In this document: positions 39,529 to 51,593 of the stretch, piece by piece | Position numbering within the stretch: position 1 is the stretch's first letter | Layout: the number at the start of each line of letters is the position of its first letter | Assembly (NCBI GenBank): GCA_036867785.1 | Contig: CP145424.1 | Location: forward strand, 1-64,000 | Direction: 5' to 3' | DNA length: 64,000 nt | From: Plasmodiophora brassicae | Lineage: Eukaryota | Notes under the pieces: generated by a model | Database searches by the model: none | Told to the model about the DNA's origin: nothing | What the model saw: the letters and a program-made list of their open reading frames with translations, nothing else | Program-made: the position numbers and the translations under genes

Positions 39529-39612
39529 GGCGATGCGGGGAGAGCGGAGCCGACGACTGCCGGTTCGCGTGCCGGCCTCGGTGACGTCAACGCCCCCCTC
39601 GGGGTCAGATAC

Positions 39613-39768
39613 GTTCCGAACAGATATTCGCAGGATGGGGCAGAATCCGTCGGGCGCCCGTATATGTACACACGGAGACTGCGAAGGACCTCTGGCCGTC
39701 GACGTTGCTGAACTCGACGACTGGGCATGCACGCCAGGTAGGTGACGTCGTGGGCGAAAGAACCCTGC
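39613..39768 (-). repeat. Diverged inverted copy of the POLE2 last exon and 3' flank (partner at 41847-42042)
   Basis: Minus-strand QGSFAHDVTYLACMP versus POLE2 QGSFAHDFSYAAYMP; shared CCTGCGAATATCTGTTCGGAAC and CCAGAGGTCCTTC blocks. Confidence 0.88.
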
Positions 39769-40022
39769 GGCTGCATCGGTTCGATGGGCGGACTGGATGC
39801 GTTGCTTCGACGGTGCTGGCGACGTGATTCGCGCTCGGCGTCTTCTGATTGAAACAGGAGCATGCCCGAATACGCAGTGATTCCAGGACAGGCCATGTGA
39901 CGGAGGAAAGGGCCAATTTTCGCCGTTTTTGTCCGGACGCCGTGGCGGAGTCCGCGGTGCGCTTCGGCGGCGCAGGAGGAGGGTGCCCCCGTCCAGCGAG
40001 CGAGCGGCCCGAATGCGCCATC

Positions 40023-41937
40023 ATGGGTGAACGCGACCGTGCCCGAGCCTACAACCGCGCGTTCCGGCGCGCCCGTCTCTGCCTGCAGAGCGATGCGATC
40101 GCCGCCATGGACGGTACGTCCCGCGCATCACCGGACGCGCCCTGGCGCTGAGCGTCGCCCGCGCTGCATAGAGTTCTTTGTCAAGTACGGCGAGCAGAGC
40201 ATCGACGCGTTCGTCGAGGACATCTTGAACAAGTTCGAGGAGGGCGGGTGCGCCCCGGCCGACAATATCGTGACAGCGGCGACGCTGCGTCCCGTCCTGG
40301 ACATCCTGGCGAAACCGGCCGGCGGCGACCAGGACGACGCGTTCGCCGCGTCGGGCGCGCGAATTCGCGTCCTGTCCGCGATCGAGGCGCCTCGCGTCCA
40401 CTGGGACCACTCCCGTTCCGTCTTCGTCGTTGACCGCTCCCATACGCCGCACTACCACAGCCCGGACCCGAAATCCAAGTGGCAACGACTGGAGTCTCGG
40501 TACCATGTCCTTCGTCAGCGCCTGCTTCGCGACGCGTCGTTTCATCGGGACGCGCTGGCACGTGGGCCGCAGTCGTCGTCCGAGGAGCTCGCCTCGATCG
40601 AAAGCGTCGCCGGCACGTCCGGCACGGTCTCCCTGTTCGGCCTGCTCGCCGAGCTCGAGGAAGGGCGGTTCTACCTGGAGGATCCCGGCGCGTCCATCCA
40701 GCTCGACCTGTCCCGCTGCAAGACCTCCGTCGGCGTCTTCCTCGAACACTGCTTCGTCATCGTGATCGGTAATCGCCCGCTGGCTCCGCGTCACTGTCGA
40801 CATTGTCGTTCACACCCTCCGGGGCGTCTTCAGGCGAGCTCGACAAGGACGACGTGTTCTGTGTGAAGTACATGGGGTTTCCGCCGCCCGAATCACGCGA
40901 TACGACGCTGAGCGCCTTCGACGACCTTCAGTTCGCCGCGCCCGAGGATCGCGTCCGGCTGCGCAAGCTCGAGGAGGCGCACGCCGGTCCCGATTCCGTC
41001 GTCCTGTTCAGCGAGTGCCACCTGGATCGGCCCGATGTCCTCGACCGCATCGACCTGATCCTGTCGCAACGCAGCCCGACGTTCCCGTCCCTGTTCGTCT
41101 TCTGCGGCAACTTCTCGTCGACGCCGATCGGCGACGACTACGGCAGGCAGCGCGCCCTGTTCGACGCGCTGGCCGCCGTCATCGAGCGGCACGACGCGCT
41201 GGCCATGGACAGCCTGTTCGTGTTCGTCCCGGGCCCCGCCGACCTGTCGTACGGCCGATCGTTGCCGCACCCCGGCCTGCCCGCGCTCGTCACCGAGCGC
41301 CTGCGCCAATCCATCAGGAACGTCATGTTCCCGTCGAACCCCTGCCGCATCCAGTATTGCACCCAGGTACGGGCGCGTCGTGCTCGTTCGACAGTGCGCT
41401 GGTTACACATACGTGTGTGTGTGTGTGTGTGTGCTGCAGGAGATTGTCGTGTTCAGGGACGACATCTGCCGCCGGGTACGGTGAGCGATTCCGTCTGCTG
41501 GGTCGACCGTCATGCTAAGCGCCCCTGGGGTGTTCTCGTGCAGCTGAGCGAGACGTGTGCCCTGCCGCCGAACCTGGAGGCGGAGACGTCGCTGCACAGG
41601 CACGTGGTGAAGACTGTGCTGGACCAGGCGCACCTATGCCCCGTGCACCCGACGCGCCAGCCGGTCCACTGGGACCTCGACCATGGCCTGCGCCTGTACC
41701 CAATGCCGACCATGCTGGTCCTGGCCGACGACGCGCCCGCCTACGAGTCCACGTACACGGCATGCTACGTGTTCAACCCGGTCTGCTGGGCGGCGCCCGT
41801 GCATGCGTCCAAATGCATCCCCGCTAATTCCTGACCGACGTTGCCGGCAGGGATCGTTCGCCCACGACTTCAGCTACGCGGCGTACATGCCCGGGCGGCG
41901 CGTCGTCGAGTTCAGCAACGTCGACGACAACGACTGA
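40023..41937 (+). CDS. POLE2: DNA polymerase epsilon subunit B (Dpb2)
   Basis: RYHVLRQRLLR, FYLEDP, MGFPPPESR, FVFCGNFSS, FVFVPGPAD, SNPCRIQYCTQ, LDQAHLCP, LRLYPMP and NPGSF. Confidence 0.95.
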
Positions 41938-42257
41938 TCAGGACGTCGACTGCCAGAGGTCCTTCACAGTCTGTGTCTCAGTGTGTACATAAACGAGCGC
42001 CCGGCGGATATTCTCCTTGTCCTGCGAATATCTGTTCGGAACCTACCGTACATTCCGCGGGCAAATTGCTTCTCGTCCCGCGCGATGTCACCCCGATTGA
42101 TCCCGCGGGGACGAAACATGCCATTCGTCCCCCGCGGGCTTCTGCTGCCCGCATTCGGCCTGCGGGACTGCGGGTGCCCGCGTTCGCTGTCCGTGACCAG
42201 CGCTGCGCATTTCTGCGCTGTGTGTGGGCAGTTGCGATTGATCTGGCTGAGCTCGAG

Positions 42258-43795: not shown

Positions 43796-44343
43796 TCACC
43801 ATGAAGTCCTTCCCATCGTGGCCAAGTCCTGTATTGGTGCTGTCTAAGAATTTGATTACGCCAGTTGACTCAACTTGTTCGGTCGTCACACAGTTGTAAG
43901 TTTACCGGATGCAACGCCATCGAAATGAACTCCCTGCTCCATCTGGGTAGACACGGTTCCAGCGCTGTTCCCATAAGAACTGTTAGACCTCACAGTTGCT
44001 GTACACAAGCAAGCCGATGAGATAAAATGGCACCGGTGCGGAAGCGCTTATATAGGAGCTTACCTTCTCGAGCGCGTGACGTCAAATGCAACGCGATGAC
44101 TGCCAGGACGAAGGGGCATATGCGGTGGGCCCGACAATGTCTCCCAAGCTGCTCTCGTCGCCTAGTTGGGCGGTCCGGTCTACAACATGGCGTGGACAAA
44201 CACGATAGTGAGCGCATGGGTACCCTGGGAAGGAGAACATGACACGGTCCCATAAGTCGTATATCGTCGATTGCTGTTGGAAACGCGGTGCTGCTGTGCC
44301 GACCGGGCAGATGATTGGAGGAATGAGTTGCGGCAGCAGTTAG

Positions 44344-45183
44344 TCAATATTTCACTCTTGGCCACTGGCTTTCATGCGACTCGTGAGCGACTGCTTCAGC
44401 AAGAGTCAGCGCAGGAATTGCTTGCAAATTCGTGTGGTCCCACAAATAGGCAGTGCCGATGGAATAGAACTCCTCCGGGCGCGCCAGCATGTCATTCACA
44501 AATCCCTGCGGTACATAATAGCCCTGCCGTCCTCGAGCATCAACCAGCGTGATGCGGTTAATAAAATCAGCGAGGGGCACGAAGAGTTCGTATGTGAAGC
44601 GCATTCCACCGCTCAGCAACTCCTCCAGGTTATTCCCAGCGTCCCCGGTCAACTTCTTCCCTGTTCGCACTGTTCCGACTTTGACGGGCGCATTGTGCTT
44701 AGGGATAGTCCTTCGATTGCCATAGATGGCACGCAGGATCCGGAGGCAGTATGATGTCAAGGCGTGCCCGATTTCGTGTAACCCTTTTAACATCATGAAC
44801 ACGCGTAATGCATCCAGATGTTCGGAAGTGACGCCCACATCGACCTTGGCAGCATCAAGCATATCCGTGATCATCCCCGGGTCGAGCGTGATTTCTCGAC
44901 GGGCAATGTCAAATTTGCCAAACATGCTGTGTCGACGCGCCCAGTTAACGATACCCGGAACGTCTGTTCGCCAGGACTGATCCGCAACGACCGCGGCGTA
45001 GGCTGAACCCGGGTATACCTTGAATCTGAGCGCATGTGCGAACGACTCGACTTGATCTGCCAGAACAGGAACCATTTGGGGCCCATTGACAGCCGTCTCA
45101 ATCAGTCGCACAACTTCAGCTTGGACCTCAGCCACGTCAGCGCGGCTGACAGGGCCGCTCCTCGAGCGAATCGCCACTGCCAT
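44344..45183 (-). CDS. Intronless putative zincin-like (HExxH) protein
   Basis: LHEIGH followed about 45 aa later by GDAGNNLEELLSGG; ~279 aa from the ATG at 45183. Confidence 0.65.
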   Translation of the reverse strand: MAVAIRSRSGPVSRADVAEVQAEVVRLIETAVNGPQMVPVLADQVESFAHALRFKVYPGSAYAAVVADQSWRTDVPGIVNWARRHSMFGKFDIARREITLDPGMITDMLDAAKVDVGVTSEHLDALRVFMMLKGLHEIGHALTSYCLRILRAIYGNRRTIPKHNAPVKVGTVRTGKKLTGDAGNNLEELLSGGMRFTYELFVPLADFINRITLVDARGRQGYYVPQGFVNDMLARPEEFYSIGTAYLWDHTNLQAIPALTLAEAVAHESHESQWPRVKY

Positions 45184-45273
45184 CGATTCAAATCGCTCCG
45201 CCACGGACTGACATCACCATTCACCACCCGCGCGGACTATTACCAATTCTTGAATTTTTATGTAAATGGGTGT

Positions 45274-45346: not shown

Positions 45347-46226
45347 ACGACACTCAGTTACATCAGTGGTGGAGCAGCCCGAATTTATGAGCCTGCTCGG
45401 GTTGGGCTCACCAACAAACACCTGTGTCAAGTGACGCGACCGCTTCAACTGGGTGTCGCTGTAACCACTGGCGCCACGGCGCGACCGGAGGGTCGCACCA
45501 CACAACGACGTTGGCGCAGTTGCACTTCTGAGCGATCGCGAGCGGGTCGACAGGATGGCGAGCGAGCAGCAACATGGGCCTCTGATCCCCCTGTCCAAGG
45601 ATGAGACCAAGGTCAACGTGGACGCGCAGCTGCCCCCGTCACGTCGCCCGAAGCAGGTGGCCGCGTTCAGGTGTGGACGCGCACACTGCAACACGTTCCT
45701 GAAGAACGAGCGTGCCCAGAATTTAACTGCCAGTGCTGGTTGAACATCGATGCGAACTCATCACATGATTCGCAGGACGACACGATCCGCCTGTCGAGTA
45801 CGATGCGAACAAGTGTCGCGAGATCACGTTCGGTCGAGGGCGAGCGCTCTTCGAGCGCTCCTCCGCGTACTGTGCCGAACGTCAAGTATATGCCCGGGAA
45901 GCCGAAGGACTATATCAGCCAGATCCATGTCGACTTGGCCATGGTGTACCGGACACGGGGCATAGCCCAACTGTGTCCGTGCTTGTACGGCGAGTACTGG
46001 TCGGCAAGGGTCGACGCAGTTGCCAAAGGGATCACAGTCGCCAGGCATCATGTGGGCCTGAGCGTCACGTCGCATGCGGTCGGTTTCAGCGAGGACGACG
46101 GGATCCTCATGTCGACCGCCCTCGCCGACGACAACGCGCCAAGGTCCCAATCATTGCTCTAAGTCTACCTACCTGTCTGCTGCGCTGGATACGTCAAAGA
46201 GATGATCTGATCAATGGGCAGAGCGG

Positions 46227-47009
46227 CATTGAATTTCGCCGTCTTGCTCATGGGAAGAACGTCTGACGTCGGCGGAGCCAAGCAGACAAAGGCGTCGTTG
46301 CGAATGGCCAGGGGTCCCATGCAGTTCGGCTTGATGAGAGAGAAGGGTCACCAAGCCCAGTACATGGGGATCGCCGAGTCCATGCAGGATCCGATACGCG
46401 TGCAGGAACAGCTTTTCGACGCCTAACGACGCCAAAGCACCCACCGTCCGTAGATGATGTGCCCACGCGTTCAGGGCACTGCGCGCGTGTCGGATCCTGC
46501 ATGGACTCGGCGATCCCCATGTATTGTACTGGGGCTTGGCGACCCTTCACTCCCATCAATCCGAACTGCATGGGACGCCTGGCCATTCGCATCGACGCCT
46601 TTGTCGGCTTGACTCCTCCGCCGCCGTCAGGCGTTCTTCCCATGAGCAAGACGGCGAAATTCAATGTTCATCCAGAGTACCAGTACTCAGATGATGCTGC
46701 CCAGATGCTGCTGCCACCCGGTCACATGATCATGACCGTACTCGACCCCGCAGCGGCCCTTGCTGTGACGATCCTGTCCAAATACATCAGTTCGTTATAT
46801 CAGCAGGCGCCGACTCTTGCGACCGACCGCCCCCGTAGTGGGCAGCGGCGGCGTTAGCACACGCCTGGTGATATAACGAATTGATGTATTTGGACAGGAT
46901 CGTCGCAGCAAGGGCCGCTGCGGGGTCGAGTTATACGGTCATGATCATGTGACCGGGTGGCAGCAGCATCTGAGCAGCATCATCTGAGTACTTGTACTCT
47001 GCATGAACA
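46227..47009. repeat. Two abutting long inverted repeats (double hairpin)
   Basis: Arms 46227-46405 / 46479-46666 (73-nt loop) and 46665-46809 / 46862-47009 (52-nt loop). Confidence 0.93.
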
Positions 47010-47658
47010 GCTGTGCTGGATCTTCACGCCTGCGAGTGGTCCTGGACGAATGAGAGAGCTCGCGCGTAGCAACCCTTGCGATTCCGACGGTGCTTGGTCG
47101 AGGACAGGTTGACCGTGCACGATTGACAGTAGGTCGTGGTCCAGCCACCACAGACGACGCACGAACGAGGTCGCCCGCTCCAGGCGGCCACTGCGTCACG
47201 CTGGACACTTGTGCGCTTTTAAGGCATCGCCACCAGGCCAAGACCCGGGGGATGTCCGACGACCTGGCCGGCAAATCCAAAGCCAGGAAAGCGGCGAAAG
47301 CCAGTGCTCGTATAGAGCAGGCCCTGAACCGGAAAATGAAGAGCAACTGGAAACCGGAAGCCCTGCATGCGCGGCTTCTTACACAAATCGGCTACTCCCA
47401 GGAGCACGCAGTCAGGCTGTCCCCGGGACACAGTTGGGATACAAAGGACCTCGCCAAACTTCTGCATCCAAAACGTGGCCGATCTGCTGCCTGTGCCTTC
47501 AGTTCCTCGAACGATGGGCGCTCAGGAAGGTCTCTACCGTATTTTACAAAGAATACGACCCCCCCCTTGAACACGACCCCCCCAGAACATGCGTAATGCG
47601 GATTGGACGCTGCTGTCGCCGTGGACCTACCTACGGCATTTTGCAGGATAGCTGCTCA

Positions 47659-48057
47659 ATGCGTGTTGAGATTGTTGGTCTGAACTACACAGACAGTGGT
47701 CGCTCCTGCGAGCGTCATCCTGATGGATGTGGACATTCTGTGAAAGCGTCCGACGTGCTGCGTCTCGTGCCGGTGCTCCTCCAGCGACACGACCAGGTAA
47801 ATGGCCAGTGGGTCCCTGTATCCCAGGAGCAGGCGGTCGCCGTCCATACAGTCGAAACCCCTTCTTGCAGAGTAGCATTCCTGCCAAAATCAATGTTATG
47901 GCGTCAGGATGAACTTCTGGACAAAATGCTTGTGGTCGAGAGCCTGGGCAAAGATAGCGAGCTTCGTCATACCAGAGCGCGGTCTCAGAGACGTGGAGGG
48001 TCGGCCGTGTGCCTATGCCTCGATGTAATCAAGCAAAACTGCATTCGAACTGAATAA
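47659..48057 (+). CDS. Second ORF inside the pogo element; HIRAN-like with a GRSCxxHxxxC motif (132 aa)
   Basis: MRVEIVGLNY..GRSCERHPDGCG...DVLRLVP...EQAVAVH...CRVAFLPK; AATAAA overlaps the stop. Confidence 0.7.
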   Translation: MRVEIVGLNYTDSGRSCERHPDGCGHSVKASDVLRLVPVLLQRHDQVNGQWVPVSQEQAVAVHTVETPSCRVAFLPKSMLWRQDELLDKMLVVESLGKDSELRHTRARSQRRGGSAVCLCLDVIKQNCIRTE

Positions 48058-48124
48058 AGAACGCGATTTGCTGTTTATAACAACAAAGGATTGGTCTCGT
48101 TTCATCGCACGCTCTGGGATACGC

Positions 48125-49483
48125 TCAGTTGACCCTGAACCCGACCGCGCTCCACGTGTTAGTAATTGATACGGCAGTGACCTCGTTCCACGCCGCAACA
48201 GCCCACTCGCGAACGAGTGGACGCGTGACCTTTGGAACTACGTTCGGGCATCGTTGCATTTCGGAGTGCAACCAGTTTTCCCACAGGCATCGGACGCGAT
48301 CCTTGAAGGGCTTGTTAACACCAACGTCCAGGACTTGAACGCGACCGGTGTAGCGAGGCTCAACAATGTCAACCTCAACGCCGTGTTGGGCCAGAGCGTC
48401 AATTACCGGCGGGCATTTGTGCGCCGACATGTCGTCCAGGAGAAGGAGTGAGGTCATCCGTCTTCCACCCACCCATGGACGGATGATCAGGTCGACGTAA
48501 GCCCTCATGCCTCTTTCATCGTTCCAGTTCTTTTGCTGGACGATACAGCGGTGACCATCACCCTTCTGGGCGTCGAGCAGTCGGAGCTCTTTCTCGATCC
48601 GCCCTCCAGGGACGCCTGCCATCAGAATGAGATCGAAGAAAAACGACGCCAACTCATAGTGCTACCTCTGAAAATGATGAGCATGCCGAGCTTGTCCCCC
48701 TCCATCGACACGGTTAAGCACACAGTTGCACTGCTGCTTGAACCGGTCGTCCTGCATCGAATGGTGCGAGCTCCCCTCAGAGCAAGAGTCGATGACTTCG
48801 GTTGGTCAAACGGTAGGGAGGTCTCGTCCATGTTCAACAGCAGATGCGGATCTATGATTCCAAGATCCCAGACGAAGTTGTTGACCGACGACAGGTAGTC
48901 ACGAACAACGTCCTCGTCGTAGCGAGTATTCTGGGCGACCCGAGTGTACCGTCTCTCGACGAGCTTGGCGTTCCGATGCAGATAACGTCGTATTTTCTGC
49001 TCGGACGCCTGCGCGTTCGTGATGGACGCGGCATACTGAGGACAACGTCTGGGATACACACGAATAAGTAATGTGTAACTGGCCGTAACGGTTAACTTAC
49101 GATGTGACAAACCGGTGAACGGCTTTGACGTTGATGTTGAGGTCAGAACTGCCCAAGTATTTGACATGTTCCTCTATCGTCTCCTTCACGTCTGCCGGTA
49201 GTGTCGACATTCTGCCGTGAGACCGCGTCCTTCGCTTAGACGTTCGCGTGCTGAACGGTTCGAACCGAATGATCCCTTCATCGTCGTTGTTGTCGCTCGA
49301 CGTTTCGTCGGTCGGACCCATTAAGTTTTTTCGCCAGTCACGAATTTGACACGGTTTGATGTCATACTCACGTGCCGTTGCCTTGATGTTGCCACGAGCT
49401 GTGGCGGAACGGACAATGGCCCGCTTCTGTTTGACGGTGTGCAGGCAGCGTCGCCGGGCAACGCCTTCGTTGTCCTTCCCCAT
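48125..49483 (-). CDS. pogo DD35D transposase, apparently intact, with two introns
   Basis: N-terminal HTH (IKATAREYDIKPCQIRDWRK), NMDET, LLLDDMSAH and QVLDVGVNKPFK, with 35 residues between the last two catalytic Asp. Both GT-AG introns restore the frame. Confidence 0.92.
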
Positions 49484-50924
49484 TTAGCTACAATCAAAAA
49501 TGCGCGCCGTCTGCGCGCCGTTCACTTCAACAGCGCTGGGGTAACCCCTCCCTTCCGACTGTCACCCAACGCAGCGTGCCAACGATAAACGCCAAGAACG
49601 AGACAAAGGCAGTTTCGAACTCGTCTCGCCGCAAGGAATCCAACGAACGAAACTCTGACGTACAAAACCTTATATCTGCCAAATATTACATTTAACAAGA
49701 CCCCCACCCCCAAATGACAGCGAGCGGAAAGTCCGCGGAGAACATTAGGGGGGGTCGTATTCTTTGTAAAATACGGTAGTCCGTCAAGGGTTTGTTGCGG
49801 TAGATGCCCGACACCCCTTGAAGCCAGGAACACTGTATCATGGTGGAACGCTCTTCGTGTTGGAGTCGCCGCTCTTCAATCTGGAGCCCCGACGCGCATC
49901 GAGCTCCCGCCGCAGCTATCGCGATCCGCGTAGCGGTTCCAGACCGACACGGCTGTCCCGAGGACGGCAGCGGCGATGACTGCAATGAATACAATGAGAA
50001 CGCTGTCCATCGGCCGGTTCTGCACGGAAAGTGTTTACCCGCGGCAAATGTTATCCATTGGTCGCTTGAAATGACCCAGCACAAAACGTCAACTGCCTCG
50101 TTAGGTGCTTCCTTACATTGACAAATACCGGTACATGAACGACCATGGTATACCGACTCGTTGGAGCTCAGTGGATAATATTTCATACACGGCGCTATTG
50201 GTGTTGCCGGCCTGAAACGATTCATCTGGTGGCCATTGAGAAGCCAAGTGACCATCGGCACCAGGGACCCTTCCTTGAGCACGCTGCCTTGTTTCACGTG
50301 AGGAGGTTCGTGTGTCGCCGAAGCAGACTCCGAGGAATGGCGCTCCGTCCTGCCAGCACGGGCGTCGACAGCGCTTCCGCTTTCAACCCTGCCGACCAGC
50401 GCGTAAAACGCGTACATGATCGGTCTATTGAGCGCCTCATCACGAGATAGCCTTCTCAGTTTAGGGAATGGAGACCATCGTACAAACAAGTAAGCCCTCA
50501 TCGCAGGTATACCATGCCAGAGAAATGGCAGGCGTTAGAATTCGTGTAGAGCAAGCTGCACAGCTCGTATCCGTGTCCCGCCAAACTAACGCCAGTCATT
50601 TCTCTGGCATGGTATACCTGCCAGGAGGGCTTTCGATTTTGTACGATGGTCTCCATTCCCCTAAACTGGGGGTCGCTTGTAGGGCGCGCAACGGGATCGA
50701 CCCGGCCCAGCGCTGATCCCCACCGGCGTGCGAACGATTATTAGTGATGCGTGGCGTGCTCTGCGACAACGACGTCGGCGGACTCCGCCACGGACTCCGT
50801 CGTCATTTGACGGCCGCACCGTTCAGCGACCTGGTCGTCGTCGCCGCCGAAACAGCCACAGGTATGCGCGCTGCGAACGGGAACGCGTCCGCCCCATGCG
50901 CCTGACGGTCGTCTACGTCGCAGG

Positions 50925-51593
50925 ATGTCCGTTCAACCGACGACGAACGCGGCCGGGCAACCGGAGGTGCAGTTCAAGATCATTCTGGTCGGCGACGGTG
51001 GCGTCGGCAAGACGACGTTCGTGAAGCGGCACCTGACGGGTGAATTCGAGCGCCGGTACATCGCGACGATGGGCGTTGAGGTGCACCCGTTGAAGTTCTC
51101 GACCAACTTCGGCACGATCATCTTCAACGTCTGGGATACGGCCGGGCAGGAGAAGTTTGGCGGCCTTCGCGACGGGTACTACATCAACGGCAACGCCGCC
51201 ATCATCATGTTCGACGTGACGTCGCGCGTCACCTACCAGAACGTCCCGCAGTGGCATCGCGACCTGACGCGCGTCTGCGAGAACATCCCGATCGTGCTGT
51301 GCGGCAACAAGGTCGACGTCAAGGACCGGAAGGTGAAGCCGAAGGCGATCATGTTCCATCGCAAGAAGCCGAACATCCAGTACTACGACGTGTCGGCCAA
51401 GTCGAACTACAACTTCGAGAAGCCGTTCCTGTGGATGGCCCGGAAGCTGGTCAACAACCAGAACCTGGTGTTCGTCGAGCAGCCCAGCCTGCAGCCGCCC
51501 GCCGTCCAGGTCGACATGAGCCTCATGCAGGAGTACCAGCAGCAGTTCGAGGCCGCACAAGCCGTCCCGCTGCCCGAGGACGACGACTTCTAG
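50925..51593 (+). CDS. RAN: GTP-binding nuclear protein Ran
   Basis: [53 protein letters not shown] and an acidic tail; probable 5'-UTR intron at 50862-50923. Confidence 0.98.

Follow-up and report, generated by a model that had tools for sequence, protein, structure and literature searches.

A chimeric double hairpin carrying a Gypsy LTR in Plasmodiophora brassicae coincides with published small RNAs and is probably a hairpin-RNA locus

Structure of the locus

The window analysed here is the whole stretch of 64,000 nucleotides at positions 1 to 64,000 of contig CP145424.1 of Plasmodiophora brassicae (assembly GCA_036867785.1, forward strand); it begins with TTTTAGGG telomere repeats, and positions given without a contig name refer to it. 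At 46227-47009 lies a 783-bp double hairpin with the layout A-loop-A'-B-loop-B' (Table 1), which arm alignment and folding recover as two abutting hairpins. Arms A (46227-46405) and A' (46479-46666) align with 166 matches, 13 mismatches and 2 indels, and arms B and B' with 139 matches, 6 mismatches and 1 indel. The layout, the arm lengths, the loops of 73 and 52 nt and the TG at 46665-46666 common to both hairpins, all described in the original prediction, hold on alignment.

Table 1. Features of the double hairpin and its immediate flanks
Feature	Position	Strand	Remarks
U, native left flank	45942..46226	+	Continuous with arm A in the paralog C16:445.9-446.4 kb
Arm A	46227..46405	+	Belongs to a low-copy dispersed sequence that has paralogs on C16, C17 and C18
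PHAS21-117, phased 21-nt siRNA locus	~46229..46796		Ctg_14:39858-40425, P 1.7e-4, Table S6 of PMC13547706, placed by offset
Loop 1 (73 nt)	46406..46478	+	Native continuation of A', not of A
Chimeric frame, 132 codons	46459..46857	+	GTG start; accidental, fused from both source sequences
Arm A'	46479..46664	+	Inverted duplicate of A; carries two short duplicative insertions
Complete 197-bp LTR (TG...CA) of a Gypsy element	46665..46861	+	195/197 identical to the family; no TSD
Arm B	46665..46809	+	Inside the 197-bp LTR
Pb-miR186 annotated precursor	46779..46892	+	Ctg_14:40408-40521 plus offset 6371; symmetric hairpin on the B tip, -66.5 kcal/mol
Pb-miR186 (21 nt, 5' C)	46785..46805	+	Sense to the LTR; Table S8 of PMC13547706
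Loop 2 (52 nt)	46810..46861	+	Inside the 197-bp LTR
Arm B'	46862..47009	-	Inverted copy of LTR nt 1-145; ends exactly at the LTR 5' terminus
V	47010..47181	+	Unrelated dispersed repeat, truncated here; copies on C3, C4, C6 and C10 are ~80% identical

The unit has a minimum free energy of -666.8 kcal/mol (shuffle mean -286, n = 20, z -52) and 88% of its bases are paired. Folding it as a circle, a check proposed with the prediction, left the paired fraction unchanged (88%, -662 to -667 kcal/mol) and gave a rod when closed, which is the automatic outcome for two abutting hairpins. The complementarity of the joined ends to the centre, to which the prediction had drawn attention, does exist and is uninformative: the joined ends match the centre because the two hairpins abut, nothing further being implied, and the CA at 46227 is native flank that occurs also in the C16 paralog.

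The arms differ by 4-7% plus indels and their mismatches and indels are uncompensated; they are recent inverted duplicates, not covarying strands. As predicted, there is no G-U bias among the mismatches (6/19 on the + strand, 4/19 on the - strand). The divergences of A/A' (13/179) and B/B' (6/145) are compatible with one age (Fisher p 0.34), and the 3' arms hold 16 of the 22 polarised changes (p 0.052, counted on alignments with one assignment uncertain).

The unit is single copy in the genome searched (25.28 Mb, 20 contigs). The circularly permuted or tandem forms envisaged by the prediction did not appear among the matches scored, nor did either hairpin recur there as a TIR-loop-TIR unit. 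No matching target site duplication (TSD) was found around the unit or around its LTR, and the hammerhead core pattern is absent from the 3.8 kb scanned, in agreement with the earlier reading on both points. Ribozyme models lent no support to a replicon either, an Rfam search up to E 1 returning no ribozyme family in the unit; three matches below the gathering score (MIR8622, an antisense RNA and a snoRNA) were read as generic hairpin matches. The 132-codon frame that the prediction had noted is indeed present, with no Pfam family and no relative among viral contigs, and a search for phage matches returned none.

Origin of the parts

Sequence comparison identifies the unit as a chimera, in which a low-copy local sequence (U, arm A and loop 1) is joined to a full Gypsy LTR, to an inverted copy of part of that LTR and then to the unrelated repeat V. 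In the left hairpin, the local low-copy sequence is duplicated in inverted orientation. Its paralog at C16:445.9-446.4 kb, on the opposite strand, is 90% identical over 45942-46403 and thereby crosses the left boundary of the unit; since identity runs across 46227, the unit's left edge does not mark an insertion, and the CA found there also in the paralog is native to the U-A sequence. The paralog has the order loop 1 - A' - rc(U) and forms no hairpin. Arm A aligns to it with 161 matches and 18 mismatches, and exact 21-mer matches to it number 15/159 for A and 5/166 for A'.

The LTR recurs at 99% identity in at least 40 other places (40 of 72 candidates scored), mostly as direct pairs 5,139 bp apart. 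The corresponding Gypsy element is 5,336 bp long and has one 1,629-codon frame with reverse transcriptase (RT), RNase H, integrase (rve) and chromodomain; among the four full-length copies whose TSDs were checked, three have 5 bp and one has 4 bp. The LTR thus belongs to the Gypsy/Ty3 kind (TG...CA direct repeats, RT and RNase H followed by integrase, short TSD). The family is young and multi-copy, with many identical copies and intact frames, and its 39/39 full-length matches carry one LTR haplotype (some copies counted twice). Because the frame stops 9 bp before the 3' LTR, the LTR forms nearly all of the 3' untranslated region of the Gypsy mRNA. An 8-bp perfect palindrome directly follows the 5' LTR in this family, where the tRNA primer site would be expected. 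Two such elements face each other at C4:1,656.7-1,657.3 kb with their 3' LTRs 191 bp apart, in an inverted repeat of at least 1.8 kb that is another possible source of dsRNA against the family.

The window LTR differs from the family solely at 46701 and 46803, both private bases, and its flanks (TTCAA and CGCCT) do not form the TSD of a canonical solo LTR. B' is 141/145 identical to the family LTR, with four private changes plus a 3-nt insertion, which sets it further from the family (4 changes and an indel over 145 nt) than the LTR (2 changes over 197 nt). A 41-mer with B' variants occurs nowhere else in the genome when up to 1 mismatch is allowed; no other copy has these variants in the tested stretch, so no older subfamily explains them. 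When transcription runs on the + strand, B' is antisense to the Gypsy mRNA, and 100 of its 128 21-mers match the family LTR with at most one mismatch, 48 with none.

Three of the four joints, namely A'|TG, CA|B' and B'|V, coincide exactly with LTR termini. The A|loop 1 joint has a 2-nt AG overlap and the B'|V joint no clear microhomology. Neither the native upstream part of V nor the Gypsy interior has left a remainder in the window or the next 10 kb. The prediction had held that separate occurrence of the two halves elsewhere as fold-back MITEs would speak against a circle: the halves do occur separately, as Gypsy LTR and as non-hairpin sequence and not as MITEs, which comes near to that refuting condition. 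A fold-back MITE was rejected on finding, among the matches scored, no dispersed TIR-loop-TIR copies with TSD, and a C16 paralog that is not a hairpin. A possible degenerate 9-bp TSD (6/9 matches) and a resemblance of the A|loop 1 joint to the B'|V joint (13/15), both seen by eye, were set aside as chance.

Published small RNAs from the locus

Zhang et al. 2026 (PMC13547706, available parts) describe the small RNAs of P. brassicae as 21-nt, 5'-C-biased and phased, and report two Argonautes and a Drosha-like enzyme with no Dicer and no RdRP, the source of the dsRNA being stated there as unknown. Our search with the RdRP profile PF05183 gave no match, the controls being likewise blank, so that the absence of RdRP rests on the report of these authors. 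Their miRNA calls were made with ShortStack and the phasing with sRNAminer; the evidence used here is that of their published tables, which come without read counts and without a strand for the PHAS locus, and the 234 miRNA rows of Table S8 were compared with the window by eye.

Pb-miR186 is identical to 46785-46805 at 21/21, including the private G at 46803, a position that is C in 39/39 full-length family matches (some copies counted twice). The 39 other family copies scored (40/66 candidates) match the surrounding 63-mer at 98%, with one mismatch in the miR186 stretch. The annotated precursors give offsets to Ctg_14, the collinear contig of another isolate's assembly, of 6371 (miR186) and 6367.5 (miR187), and the offset holds to 411 kb. 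Placed in this way, PHAS21-117 starts 2 nt inside the unit and ends at ~46796, leaving out B'. Pb-miR187 matches the next hairpin (50516-50536, minus strand), and the fold-back at 50457-50668 is its precursor, on the minus strand just upstream of a Ran-like GTPase gene (50925-51593).

By sequence and collinear coordinates, Pb-miR186 and PHAS21-117 belong to this same locus. The double hairpin is consequently, in the other isolate's assembly, a documented source of 21-nt small RNAs, one of which is diagnostic for the window copy on the + strand; transcription of B on that strand is implied by miR186. Being sense to the Gypsy element, miR186 cannot slice the Gypsy mRNA, and its sole predicted gene target in the published table is weak. 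The locus is thus already present in published tables. The available main text of PMC13547706 mentions neither miR186 nor "LTR" nor "inverted repeat"; a literature search that covered few subscription papers found no description of the make-up of the locus and no paper on Plasmodiophora fold-backs or LTR hairpins.

Fold-backs as a genome-wide class

In 600 kb sampled at fixed positions (60 stretches of 10 kb) we counted 14 fold-back hits, 13 of them distinct, and none in 300 kb of control (30 simulated sequences). The density of ~22 per Mb, or ~0.6% of the sampled bases, extrapolates to ~550 genome-wide. Other abutting pairs exist at C12:184,252-185,039 (gap 0, where a repeat that is intact at other places has an internal deletion) and at C15:403,667-404,047 (gap 4). 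Stretch L113 has three serial fold-backs at its positions 3017-4047, the last two of which are 4 bp apart and have a 28-bp segment in common.

At offset 6371, fold-backs underlie 5/10 miRNA precursors and 3/14 PHAS loci of Ctg_14, and these five precursors and three PHAS loci are all such loci up to 411 kb on the chromosome. The other 5 precursors and 11 PHAS loci lie beyond 436 kb, where the offset is unanchored and drifts, and have no hairpin at offset 6371: PHAS21-121 has none within 14 kb around its mapped place, itself unanchored, and PHAS21-126 and -127 fit post hoc at an offset of ~2,390. As miRNA precursors are hairpins by definition, the informative result is the overlap with PHAS, which rests on three loci. 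The large fold-backs at C16:370,226-371,629 and C16:163,470-166,050, with arms of ~700 and ~1,100 bp, coincide with PHAS21-119 and PHAS21-118, respectively.

Function of the locus

We propose that the double hairpin is probably a chromosomal hairpin-RNA locus made by DNA rearrangement. A + strand transcript entering from the left would fold into stems of ~180 bp and ~145 bp; a Drosha-like RNase III would cut these stems into 21-nt RNAs for Argonaute, and those derived from B' would be antisense to the LTR portion of the Gypsy mRNA. Among the three readings initially offered, the hairpin-RNA or siRNA source is the one supported, as a published miRNA and a phased locus map here; the integrated circle and the hairpin-capped linear DNA are not supported, given the unrelated chromosomal sources of the parts. 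Like other inverted-repeat small-RNA loci, the unit is a long inverted repeat that can fold within one transcript, and small RNAs of the species' 21-nt class map to the window copy by sequence and offset in the published tables. The locus links an annotated miRNA and a phased-siRNA cluster with one specific fold-back, of which half comes from a young, high-copy retrotransposon.

The closest parallels are Mu killer of maize (PMC3440606) and the Ac/Ds silencers from alternative transposition (10.1101/2020.01.07.897926), for which the available texts describe an inverted transposon duplication giving a hairpin RNA and siRNAs against the active family. The present locus is likewise an inverted transposon duplication that yields small RNAs, but its transposon part is 145 bp of LTR and abuts a second, unrelated hairpin, and silencing in trans would be proposed solely from complementarity. 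On that basis silencing of the Gypsy family by the locus is plausible. A measurable repression by the B' RNAs is a more tentative idea, for which we see a limited chance: miR186 is the sense strand and the PHAS21-117 interval does not include B', both of which speak against strong silencing, and given the many identical Gypsy copies with intact frames any silencing would be incomplete.

The main competing view of function is that the locus is neutral debris, the hairpin being diced as any hairpin is and its small RNAs having no effect, and we put this only slightly below an even chance. It accords with the ~550 fold-backs extrapolated for the genome, the uncompensated mismatches and indels in the arms, a Gypsy family that is still mobile and the few exact paralog 21-mers in A and A'. 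Against it, the contigs listed for sequencing run X3 show 15 differences in the flanks (17 when counted from the piece table; Fisher p 0.005 with 17) and no difference within A, loop 1 and A'. This is a weak hint of constraint, as the boundaries were drawn post hoc and a shared haplotype block would look alike.

More broadly, repair-made fold-backs, of which there are several hundred, might be the main source of dsRNA, some of them capturing cDNA of an active element, and the present locus might restrain its own Gypsy family as an acquired anti-transposon memory; we regard this combination as unlikely. If true, a captured LTR-length cDNA hairpin would be a simple form of such memory for a parasite in which RdRP and Dicer are reportedly absent. 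The private bases allow reads to be assigned to the locus, so that the question of the dsRNA source is testable with existing reads.

Origin of the rearrangement

For the origin of the hairpin-RNA locus, we give about an even chance to a single double-strand-break repair event, in which the left end would have copied itself in inverted form and an LTR-length cDNA would have been captured after turning back at nt 145 and copying to its own 5' end. Such a capture would put three of the four joints on LTR termini without a TSD. At yeast breaks (Yu et al. 2024, PMC11724301, available parts), ends acquire local inverted copies and LTR cDNA is captured; captured two-piece inverted insertions are of ~150 bp with 30-119 bp between junctions, local fold-backs are mostly of 5-34 bp, inversion joints have a median microhomology of 6 bp, and Ty sequences were left out of the inverted-pair count. 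The window unit resembles these insertions in its local inverted copy, in the size of its inverted two-piece part and in its presumed LTR cDNA, but unlike the yeast inversions its loop 2|B' joint has no microhomology. Furthermore, loop 1 runs in the orientation of the inner arm, an arrangement that a simple snap-back would not produce, and B' is further from the family than the LTR, as two insertions of different age predict.

On account of these three points, a stepwise history of the same small-RNA locus is nearly as likely, although taken by itself we would still bet against it. Here an older element would have inserted into V (giving B'), a younger copy would have inserted in the opposite direction into its LTR at or near nt 145, and LTR-LTR recombination with deletion would have left a solo LTR with unmatched flanks, the A hairpin being separate or arising via aberrant integration. 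In its favour, the three joints that fall exactly on LTR ends resemble those made by integrase, the family LTR is matched less closely by B' than by B, and facing Gypsy copies do exist on C4, 191 bp apart. This history nevertheless requires at least three events, has to do without any remainder of the native upstream part of V or of the Gypsy interior (window and next 10 kb) and without another copy carrying the B' variants in the tested stretch, and would have to be read from a small age difference, with 7 changes in all.

Support in sequencing data

An assembly or library fold-back artefact, which the prediction had named as a possible refutation, is very improbable. It could draw on the A'|B and loop 2|B' joints, bridged by no contig listed, and on 46873-46939, which has no depth in four runs. 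Yet the arms are 4-7% diverged and differ by indels as well. The U|A, A|loop 1|A' and B'|V joints are covered by contigs of two DNA runs from different studies, X2 and X3, and the assembly of the other isolate is collinear where these contigs stop, the miR186 precursor spanning loop 2 and the PHAS locus spanning A'|B (published tables, offset mapping). Contigs of runs X15 and X16, guessed to be RNA, lie over A and loop 1 at a depth of 2-5; as DNA carry-over is possible, they were set aside.

Comparison with rod-like replicons

The idea that a rod-like replicon of circular RNA or ssDNA (viroid, obelisk or retrozyme) became integrated here has next to no chance and is largely refuted: the geometry alone (an 88% paired rod when closed) speaks for it, whereas both halves trace to unrelated chromosomal sequences with arm A continuing into the flank in the paralog, the unit is single copy without a permuted or tandem form among the matches, no Rfam ribozyme family was found to E 1, and the arms are recent inverted duplicates without covariation. 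None of the contigs listed joins 47009 to 46227, an outcome that in itself says nothing against a closed form. Obelisks have a rod-like fold when closed, which the unit shares without a replicon-type ORF or known motif. DIRS-type retroelements have an internal region complementary to their joined ends; the centre of the unit is likewise complementary to its joined ends, but its LTR derives from a Gypsy element that has direct repeats, an rve integrase and short TSDs, and the unit is single copy. Viroids, as described in the available text of PMC11722881, have the rod-like fold in common with the unit, which has no hammerhead, multimers or replicon-type ORF. Retrozymes, in the same source, share the rod-like fold if closed and the link to a Gypsy LTR, but consist of two direct LTRs with hammerheads, PBS, PPT and TSD, whereas the LTR copies in the window are inverted, with no hammerhead and no TSD.

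Neighbouring features

Upstream of the unit, a 163-codon frame has no Pfam match, no usable Atlas match and six other genome matches, five of them weak. A 286-codon frame at 44344-45204 (minus strand), likewise without Pfam match, lies within a repeat that is also present on C2, C10 and C16 (76-89%). At 39610-42045 a diverged inverted repeat (~70% over 210 bp) surrounds frames that include a match to DNA polymerase alpha/epsilon subunit B. The segment 42059-43865 is a decayed multi-copy element without family match that looks FAR1/MULE-like and ends in an 84-bp fold-back; its copies on C8, C12 and C17 likewise have fold-backs. A 39-bp motif at 44147-44185 occurs in dozens of places, often as inverted pairs, and by eye resembles Pb-miR074 and Pb-miR203. 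Finally, a pogo/Tc1-like DNA transposon occupies 47534-49779; its inverted ends are perfect over 32 bp and its DDE_1 frame is broken. A contig of run X3 joins across this interval, so that the isolate concerned appears to have the empty site.
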